DNA of 22,590 nucleotides, from the IMG/VR virus record IMGVR_UViG_3300014970_000006, positions 1-22,590 of that record; one strand, given 5' to 3'. Position numbers and translations under genes: made by a program. The stretch is from a virus (taxonomy: Duplodnaviria > Heunggongvirae > Uroviricota > Caudoviricetes). Positions 18,913 through 19,686 of this stretch are shown one piece after another. Within the stretch, counting starts at the first letter, position 1; each line of letters starts with the position of its first letter. Under the pieces are notes generated by a model. The model made no database searches and had not been told where the DNA came from. It saw nothing but the letters and a program-made list of their open reading frames with translations.

Positions 18913-19686
18913 TCAAAAATTAGGTGAGTAACGGACCGGGGACATAGCTCCTTTTTTTCTTAATTCATCTGGTATTTTTTTTCCAAGATAAAGATTTGCT
19001 ATTTCAGGTGGGGCTTCTCGACCTTCAAAACCATAGCGAGAACTTTGTGTTGCCTCAAAGTCCGGATCCTCGTCCCAGTATTTCATCGTAGGGAAATTTT
19101 CACGTGTTGATTTGAGCCATTTATCAGCAATGAAAACCCCTCGAACGATCCCCCTTACAGTAGCAAGAATGACTTCTGCTTGGCTGGCGCGAGAGACATT
19201 AATGCGCCAGCTAAATCGAACCGCATCATAAAGCTCTGAATCCTTTGCACTTCTGTTAACGGAAATCATTAATGCTTTATGATGAAATGTTATGGTTTCG
19301 GGTTGATATGTTGCTATCAACTCTTTGACATGCGCGGCGCCGAATTCATTGCTGCCAGCACCATTCATGATATTCGTTAACCCAGGGTAGGCATCAATAA
19401 GTGCTGCTTCAACTTCGTACGCCGTCTTTTCATCAGTCATTCCGTGTCGATGGATGACATGGATAACCTCAAGTCCTGCTAACCTTATTTCTCTAATTTG
19501 CTTTAGCTTGTTGCTCAGTAACTCGTCATCATCAGTCGCTGCCACTTCACCGCGCATATGGGCAAATACGCGGTTACCTTTGCCTTTCCCTACATAGAAG
19601 GTGCTTCCGTCCCTCGGATCAATCAATCGGTATACATACCAGCCAAGGTGTTCAATTACTCCAGAAGGAAACTCAGTAATATCCAT
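18913..19686 (-). CDS. GIY-YIG-like nuclease domain protein (258 aa from the likely start)
   Basis: N-terminus [29 protein letters not shown] parallels the UvrC-type GIY-YIG motif ([24 protein letters not shown] as recalled); AT-rich, opposite strand to the tail genes. Confidence 0.65.

Follow-up and report, generated by a model that had tools for sequence, protein, structure and literature searches.

A probable intact copy of the CMoRE (PD-T4-3) nuclease gene downstream of the tail-fibre invertase of a defective e14-like prophage

The anti-phage gene PD-T4-3 was recovered from ECOR68 by functional selection against T4, as a 774-bp open reading frame (ORF) on a 996-bp clone; with 189 bp of flanking DNA or less the single gene was sufficient, and a gene 100% identical to it was recovered from a different genome context as well (Vassallo et al. 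2022, PMC9519451). Deletion of the PD-T4-3 gene from the clinical isolate NILS69 renders this strain sensitive to Tevenvirinae. A homologue from Capnocytophaga degrades modified T4 DNA but not T4-GT7 DNA, and at high dose Mu DNA also (PMC12366544). The enzymes of E. coli O157:H7 (PDB entries 9U75 and 9U8D) and E. coli APEC O1 (9U7U and 9U7Z) have been crystallised by Liu et al. (Nat Commun 2026, PMC12923530), who gave PD-T4-3 the name CMoRE. Here we describe a stretch of viral DNA of 22,590 nucleotides (IMG/VR record IMGVR_UViG_3300014970_000006, positions 1 to 22,590; hereafter the window), in which a minus-strand gene just beyond a phage tail-fibre invertase is very probably an intact copy of CMoRE.

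CMoRE has three parts—an N-terminal GIYxY-YIG nuclease domain, a flexible linker, and a C-terminal domain that senses 5-hydroxymethylcytosine (5hmC) and glucosyl-5hmC (5ghmC). It gives about 10^5-fold protection against T2, T4 and T6, and the O157:H7 gene is active under its native promoter (PMC12923530). Cleavage depends on Mg2+ or Mn2+; DNA containing 5hmC or 5ghmC is cut and DNA containing cytosine or 5-methylcytosine (5mC) is not, and unmodified DNA is neither bound nor cut. The cut pattern is CN11/N9G with 2-nt 3' overhangs, and there is no strict sequence need beyond two modified cytosines. Defence requires a tetramer, with V92 and L96 needed; 5-hydroxymethyl-dCTP (5hm-dCTP) binds the C-terminal domain, and the backbone of Y127 contacts the 5-hydroxyl of 5hmC. 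An acidic lid between helices alpha2 and alpha3 covers the active site, and a lid mutant (4A) cuts ordinary DNA, is toxic and slows growth (all PMC12923530).

The corresponding gene in the window is as follows.

18913-19686, minus strand: CMoRE / PD-T4-3 coding sequence, 257 aa plus stop, from the ORF list and from profile and PDB matches

The first-pass annotation, made from the letters of the DNA and a list of ORFs, had called an AT-rich minus-strand gene of this extent, with an N-terminal GIY-YIG motif and about 170 aa of unrecognised sequence, and had proposed that it encodes a GIY-YIG nuclease that stands alone and serves in defence as a restriction-like effector. The ORF is confirmed, and its GC content of 43.8%, compared with 55–60% in the tail genes to its left, makes it AT-rich in relative terms. 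The proposed role is borne out by the identity of the gene as CMoRE/PD-T4-3. The novelty implied for it did not hold up, as the gene is already known: it was found in 2022, its modification dependence was described in 2025, and its mechanism and structures were solved by 2026.

The identification is carried by three comparisons. PD-T4-3 (PDLC04031) is the sole match of the window protein in the PADLOC library, spanning profile positions 1–256 of 256 with an E-value of 2.4e-140. Among PDB sequences, phmmer recovers 9U75/9U8D (E = 3.7e-172, residues 1–257) and 9U7U/9U7Z (E = 1.1e-150), both entered under the title 'GIY-YIG domain-containing protein'. Residue by residue, the window protein is identical to 9U75 at 253 of 257 positions (98.4%), with T51A, E55D, Q169K and N197H as the only differences, and to 9U7U at 219 of 257 (38 differences). 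The chromosomal copy of O157:H7, which also lies after pinE, encodes a protein 100% identical to 9U75, and the copy of strain UPEC129 one 100% identical to 9U7U; a protein identical to that of the window is annotated as WP_000355484.1 in strains C7, KSC1031 and SC476. The window gene thus agrees with the O157:H7, APEC O1 and ECOR68 genes in family, length and architecture, and like them stands as a single gene, preceded by an upstream region of its own.

All of the residues named as functional in the text of the CMoRE paper are present in the window copy, including the GIYxY-YIG tyrosines Y17, Y19 and Y31, R80, the tetramer/dimer-interface residues V92 and L96, and the 5hmC contact Y127; residues 127–257 differ from 9U75 only by Q169K and N197H. 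The acidic lid reads D52-D53-D54-E55 (DDDE), as in the crystallised APEC O1 enzyme. Since 51 and 55 are the only positions of residues 1–126 to differ from 9U75, the catalytic Arg and Glu, whose loss the first-pass annotation had named as grounds for abandoning a GIY-YIG assignment, are kept. Their assignment as R39 and E93 is our guess from the motif; the text of the CMoRE paper gives no residue numbers for them, and the N-terminal domain matches no GIY-YIG protein among PDB sequences besides CMoRE itself, so the numbering is not derivable by alignment.

The N-terminus of the window protein runs G15-W-Y17-V-Y19 ... F30-Y31-V-G33-K-G (GWYVY...FYVGKG). Pfam PF22945 (LEM-3-like GIY-YIG) matches residues 28–110 with 54.2 bits against a cut-off of 27, and the generic GIY-YIG model PF01541 scores 13.9 bits, under its gathering cut-off of 22.6; the GIY-YIG fold is crystallographically confirmed for the 98.4%-identical protein (PMC12923530). 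Profile searches had been proposed for a GIY-YIG domain together with a C-terminal DNA-recognition domain, and only the former was recovered: residues ~111–257, close to the length first estimated, have no match in Pfam or NCBIfam (the whole protein has none in NCBIfam), and the lack of a Pfam match in the C-terminal domain is reported in the CMoRE paper also (PMC12923530). A full-length match is found to PHROG 5356, described as of 'unknown function'. CMoRE departs from the GIY-YIG domains of the UvrC N-terminus and of LEM-3/ANKLE1 by one additional tyrosine (GIYxY), by an acidic insertion of 15 residues, and by its fusion to a unique domain that senses 5hmC.

An in-frame TTG at 19737, upstream of the ATG at 19686, would add 17 residues to give a protein of 274 aa. 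The ATG is taken as the start because the PADLOC profile alignment begins at residue 1, because the coding sequence called by the Prokaryotic Genome Annotation Pipeline (PGAP) in identical loci is 774 bp, and because the crystallised proteins open with MDITEF.

By near-identity to the crystallised enzyme, the same mechanism would be expected of the window protein. It would assemble as a tetramer, a dimer of dimers, in which the C-terminal domain would bind a flipped-out 5hmC or 5ghmC at the domain edge. One dimer would read two modified cytosines about 21 bp apart (CN11/N9G), and the N-terminal GIYxY-YIG domain, with Mg2+ or Mn2+, would cut between the two to leave 2-nt 3' overhangs, with the acidic lid loop (DDDE, residues 52–55) over the active site excluding unmodified host DNA. 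Incoming T-even phage DNA would be degraded and the infected cell would survive, which would amount to direct immunity. On the strength of proteins that are 98.4% and 85% identical to it, the window protein is predicted to cleave 5hmC- and 5ghmC-containing DNA but not DNA with C or 5mC, and to protect against T2, T4 and T6. By identity to the structures, the sensing and nuclease domains are separate, as in type IV enzymes; Pfam, NCBIfam, PADLOC and PHROG scans find no methyltransferase gene among the neighbours in the window, as expected for an enzyme of this type.

We put the probability that the window gene is an intact CMoRE (PD-T4-3) copy with this mechanism at about 95%. The sequence itself offers no evidence to the contrary, but there are caveats. 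Of the four differences from 9U75, two fall in or beside the autoinhibitory loop, although the other crystallised allele naturally carries DDDE. Consensus promoter scanning together with our own scan finds no sigma-70 promoter with at least 9/12 matches, and no clear Shine-Dalgarno sequence, upstream of the gene, and the APEC O1 allele is weak from its native promoter (PMC12923530), so that the level of expression of the window gene in situ is uncertain.

We suggest that this gene be annotated as CMoRE/PD-T4-3 (type IV, 5hmC/5ghmC-specific), and not as 'LEM-3-like GIY-YIG domain-containing protein' or 'hypothetical'. The host strain is predicted to resist T-even phages after their adsorption, a point of relevance to phage therapy and phage typing. 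In a set of 5426 complete E. coli genomes, some allele of CMoRE is present in 958 (17.7%), and 838 carry it at 95% nucleotide identity or more, such that about one in six genomes would share the predicted trait.

The position of the gene is defined on one side by the invertase.

18265/18301-18855, plus strand: pin-type tail-fibre invertase (serine recombinase), Pfam Resolvase 1.1e-51 plus HTH_7; upstream boundary of the slot

CMoRE lies 57 nt downstream of the invertase and is convergent with it. In near-identical loci PGAP labels the invertase 'pinE', and its nucleotide identity to K-12 pinE is 92% up to the stop codon. The site sequence given in PMC12529663 places the crossover sites of the invertible tail-fibre segment at 16423-16438 and 18219-18234, and CMoRE therefore lies outside the invertible DNA.

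K-12 e14 carries mcrA in this position, and the first-pass annotation had placed the window gene in the same slot, which is literally the case: e14 homology ends at the pin stop codon, with mcrA next in K-12 and the CMoRE cassette next in the window. McrA (EcoKMcrA) and CMoRE thus share a slot that follows directly on the stop codon of pinE, on the side of an e14-type element nearer its attachment (att) site, but differ in other respects. PGAP annotation marks them as unrelated proteins, tblastn finds no detectable similarity of McrA to CMoRE, and mcrA is co-directional with pinE whereas CMoRE is convergent on pin. McrA is an HNH-type nuclease acting on 5mC and 5hmC, not on glucosylated DNA, in contrast to CMoRE, which cuts 5hmC and 5ghmC and not 5mC. 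In the genome set, the pinE|CMoRE junction is found in 574 genomes and the K-12-type pinE|mcrA junction in 331.

Other genes occupy the slot elsewhere. UPEC129 has, between pin and the tmRNA gene ssrA (positions 4621-9715 of locus L086), a mini-island of three nucleases with a 97-aa unknown protein; the nucleases are a GmrSD-type type IV enzyme (PADLOC mREase_IV, full length), an APEC O1-type CMoRE, and a protein with a DpnII/MboI-like restriction endonuclease domain. This CMoRE allele, about 75% identical to the window allele in nucleotide sequence, lies between a pin remnant and ssrA. GmrSD-type enzymes (DUF262 / GmrSD_N plus GmrSD_C) resemble CMoRE as single-chain modification-dependent nucleases tied to glucosyl-hmC phage DNA, and here as occupants of the same slot, but they are of another fold with other domains, are ~630 aa in length, and have no sequence relationship to CMoRE. 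Beyond E. coli, 80 loci of Pin relatives, one per species, were compared. At the 73 usable loci, the genes that come first after the invertase group into 39 clusters, which agrees with the variability that the first-pass annotation had proposed looking for. Defence occupants include McrA, a retron-type reverse transcriptase, type II methyltransferases, a specificity subunit of a restriction-modification system, and a STAND-like NTPase; non-defence occupants include UmuD-like proteins, or simply the next tail gene. The post-pin slot is thus a variable cargo position, often but not always with defence genes. CMoRE was not found in the 80 loci, and the link between pin and CMoRE is therefore quantified within E. 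coli only.

A tentative reading, to which we give somewhat less than even odds, is that the pin-to-att slot of e14-like prophages is a defence hotspot that preferentially collects type IV nucleases, exchanged as cassettes of ~1 kb. In its favour are mcrA in K-12 e14 and CMoRE, each in the numbers of genomes given above; the GmrSD-type enzyme, CMoRE and DpnII/MboI-like nuclease of UPEC129; the position of both crystallised alleles and the window allele in this slot; and the hairpin motif that recurs at cassette edges, along with remnants of att sites or DinI. Were this so, the slot would let a prophage adjust the range of hypermodified T-even-like competitors kept out by its host. Our literature searches and the papers that we read gave no such description of the pin-to-att slot, and a search on GmrSD together with prophage and ssrA found nothing; prophage, invertase and McrA go unmentioned in the CMoRE paper (PMC12923530). 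Novelty here is modest and restricted to context, namely that the pin-to-att slot is repeatedly occupied by modification-dependent nucleases (McrA, CMoRE, GmrSD). As a recurring cargo site for anti-T-even nucleases, it could be mined for more enzymes.

The gene and its flanks comprise the following features.

18847-18902 (core 18863-18890), minus strand: stem-loop, hairpin copy A, between the convergent pin and CMoRE genes, from RNA folding
19687-19883, minus strand: CMoRE upstream region, inside the cassette
19862-19883, plus strand: distal cassette edge, a 22-nt stretch (CGGACCGGTCTCAAAAACCG) like a tRNA-Ser anticodon arm
19884-19911, no strand: hairpin copy B, directly outside the cassette (direct repeat D1)
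19980-20051, minus strand: remnant of a DinI-like pseudogene (...TTDRVSAKTFVHT*ESADEWFVH*), separating CMoRE from the ImmA operon

CMoRE sits in a self-contained cassette of about 1.03 kb (18856-19883), made up of a terminator hairpin, the gene, and 197 nt of upstream DNA. The extent is drawn from sharp homology breakpoints at 18855/18856 and 19883 in four independent contexts: the match of the window to K-12 e14 stops at 18856, at the pin stop codon, with mcrA next; that to a lambdoid prophage of strain C7, where CMoRE follows tfa, runs from 18855 onward; that to the O157:H7 locus spans 18201-19883 and gives way to an apparent 3' half of a tRNA-Ser gene; and that to a plasmid copy of CMoRE reaches 19981. 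The cassette is common to these four unrelated contexts and the neighbours vary. Past 19883 the distal flank of the window (DinI remnant, then the ImmA, helix-turn-helix (HTH) and BRO-N genes) differs from that of O157:H7, where the tRNA-Ser fragment is accompanied by an AraC-family gene; this O157-type distal junction is found in 414 of the genomes.

Hairpin copy A folds with -20.9 kcal/mol (z = -4.0; 0/200 shuffles as stable) and is a probable CMoRE terminator, possibly bidirectional. Copy B is followed on the minus strand by GGTTTTT, and its fold alone is not significant (z = -0.6). The two form a 28-nt direct repeat, 25/28 identical, bracketing the cassette at a distance of 1021 bp, with one copy after the pin stop codon and the other after the tRNA-Ser-like att remnant. 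The repeat motif GCACGTYGTATGCAAGAWCGTGCTG... occurs only these two times in the window, with 0 occurrences expected by chance; a third copy is found in SC476 (locus L087, ~42205-42235) after a 28-nt ssrA att fragment. We considered and rejected the motif as a Pin (pix/gix-type) crossover site, since the real sites lie at 16423-16438 and 18219-18234 and the motif has a long palindromic spacer and no 2-bp core. A site-specific cassette system was likewise set aside, shared terminators or recombination scars being more economical, because copy B adjoins the DinI-like remnant (>1300 genomes) and the third copy adjoins an ssrA att fragment. Where accreted modules meet, the hairpins are probably common terminators or scars left by recombination, and it is conceivable that they take part in cassette exchange.

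The CMoRE promoter would lie within 19687-19883. Our own scan found no better than 8/12 matches there, one being a weak sigma-70-like TTGTGA-17-TAATAT (19747-19719), and a consensus promoter scan gave no minus-strand promoter of at least 9/12 upstream of CMoRE. A 17-nt imperfect inverted repeat (I5; TTGCAATATCTATGAAT / ATTAATGAACATTGCAA, 19688-19704 / 19721-19737) overlaps the putative -10 and abuts the start codon; it may serve as an operator, or form a structure in the mRNA that limits expression. The 197-nt region is identical to the O157:H7 upstream sequence at 181 of 197 positions (92%), with the proximal 80 nt nearly invariant. At the distal edge, 19862-19883 is a probable attachment-site remnant whose tRNA-Ser identity is our reading of the sequence; the apparent tRNA-Ser 3' half in O157:H7 ends ...CTCTCCGCCA, and ARAGORN calls no tRNA at 19862-19883 or in the O157:H7 fragment, as expected for fragments.

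The DinI C-terminus with an in-frame stop is seen in the translation of 19980-20051, and 19921-20065 matches annotated DinI-like genes in ~1300 genomes. A DinI-like pseudogene also neighbours the divergent CMoRE allele of UPEC129, and the association of CMoRE with dinI may thus be older than its association with pin.

Beyond the DinI remnant is an operon of four genes, separate from CMoRE, whose starts and stops overlap.

20108-21291, minus strand: four-gene operon
20914-21291, minus strand: HTH gene, from Pfam and a PADLOC capH-like match
20377-20910, minus strand: ImmA/IrrE M78 peptidase gene, from Pfam and a PADLOC capP-like match
20241-20390, minus strand: orf49 (49 aa), no Pfam match
20108-20251, minus strand: orf47 (47 aa), no Pfam match
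20093-20075, minus strand: operon terminator, from a terminator scan (fold z = -4.25)

This arrangement raises the possibility of a two-part system, in which CMoRE would be the effector of a CapH/CapP-like DNA-damage switch (HTH plus ImmA/M78 protease) located just upstream on the same strand. The neighbours match PADLOC capP (5e-15) and capH (6e-11) and lie in the same orientation as CMoRE, the 17-nt inverted repeat overlaps its putative promoter, and repression of PD-T4-3 was speculated on in the native-host study. What decides the matter is distribution: the ImmA/HTH module is present in 33 of the 5426 genomes and the window-type CMoRE|ImmA-module junction in 31, of ~958 with CMoRE, and the O157:H7, plasmid and UPEC129 copies are without the pair. 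The linkage is thus not conserved; moreover, the intrinsic terminator (z = -4.25), the DinI pseudogene and a second hairpin separate the operon from CMoRE, which functions alone on a ~1-kb clone. We therefore rejected the HTH/ImmA pair as a CMoRE partner; it is a rare bystander, and a coupled switch is largely refuted and very unlikely.

The first-pass annotation had offered two alternatives to restriction. An abortive-infection effector, once unleashed on infection, would degrade host and phage DNA alike, so that the infected cell dies and its kin are protected; in favour of this, some toxicity is possible for GIY-YIG nucleases, and the 4A lid mutant described above cuts ordinary DNA and slows growth. 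The four-residue acidic lid is, however, intact in the window protein, and cells with O157:H7 CMoRE in liquid infection at a multiplicity of infection above 1 grew normally, with host DNA read depth unchanged and T4 DNA depleted, direct defence being stated for the ECOR68 protein too (PMC12923530). These data contradict an abortive mode of action, which we regard as most improbable. We give equally little credence to a selfish gene of the homing-endonuclease kind, in which a free-standing GIY-YIG enzyme would cut a defined target sequence in empty alleles and so spread. The cassette is discrete and flanked by the 28-nt direct repeat, the protein has a weak match to phrog_314 (homing endonuclease; E = 0.002, nuclease core only), and full-length homologues of 38–45% identity in lytic jumbo phages are labelled 'putative homing nuclease' by their depositors, but those labels are unverified annotations. 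Cleavage at CN11/N9G without a sequence requirement other than the two modified cytosines, the indifference of the enzyme to unmodified DNA, and a C-terminal domain that binds 5hm-dCTP and is not a sequence-reading domain all argue against homing; E. coli DNA is without 5hmC, and there is therefore no homing target in the host. The gene is, in addition, located in prophage cargo and does not qualify as a GIY-YIG homing endonuclease. CMoRE-type restriction of modified phage DNA remains the preferred reading.

The jumbo phages with full-length CMoRE homologues include Serratia phage Moabite (NC_048792.1, 6406-7161), Pseudomonas phage OBP and Klebsiella phage N1M2; similarity extends across both domains, and the proteins are annotated as homing or GIY-YIG endonucleases. 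They might be directed at co-infecting phages with hypermodified DNA.

The window as a whole is a defective e14-like prophage. Its parts, read from left to right, are the end of thrW, the integrase, a replication gene bearing iterons, Q and the lysis genes, the baseplate and tail-fibre genes, the invertible segment with pin, CMoRE, the DinI remnant, the HTH-ImmA-orf49-orf47 operon, a divergent BRO-N gene, and the 3' end of ssrA. The remaining features are these.

1-60, plus strand: left boundary, last 60 nt of tRNA-Thr (thrW), identical to the 3' 60 nt of the PGAP tRNA-Thr of SC476
105-1238, minus strand: tyrosine integrase, Pfam Phage_integrase 2.9e-48
21598-22359, plus strand: BRO-N / Ant-like antirepressor gene, Pfam Bro-N 2.4e-07 and PHROG anti-repressor families, divergent from the HTH gene
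22529-22590, minus strand: right boundary, 3' end of ssrA, 100% identical to that of KSC1031

The HTH-ImmA module is a candidate for a remnant immunity switch or a small damage-inducible module. An intact relative of ~38 kb resides at thrW in SC476 (locus L087). Compared with it, the window has lost ~4.4 kb of the early/immunity region (window 1238-1800; L087 5801-10163) and ~11 kb from terminase to tape measure (window ~11650; L087 20038-31114); with both blocks gone, the element is a cryptic, non-inducible remnant that has still kept its defence cargo.

ARAGORN calls no tRNA or tmRNA in the window, since the thrW and ssrA pieces are truncated by its ends and are recognised only via annotated genomes; the ssrA gene of KSC1031 is called as tmRNA by both ARAGORN and PGAP. 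In K-12, thrW and ssrA are ~2.5 Mb apart, and the element in the window is flanked by one on each side. Intact relatives are found either at thrW (SC476) or adjoining ssrA (KSC1031, C7). Together these observations suggest a source genome with a large inversion, or recombination between two related prophages.

Within the ORF at 1751-2533 is an array of about six to eight 15-bp iterons (TCAAAATCTGACNCG-like, 1880-2002), which resembles a lambda-type origin within an O-like replication gene. In SC476, directly past the BRO-N end of the prophage in the thrW island (L087 42521-44507), is retron Ec48, consisting of a reverse transcriptase and a membrane effector, another defence system accreted at the same chromosomal site.

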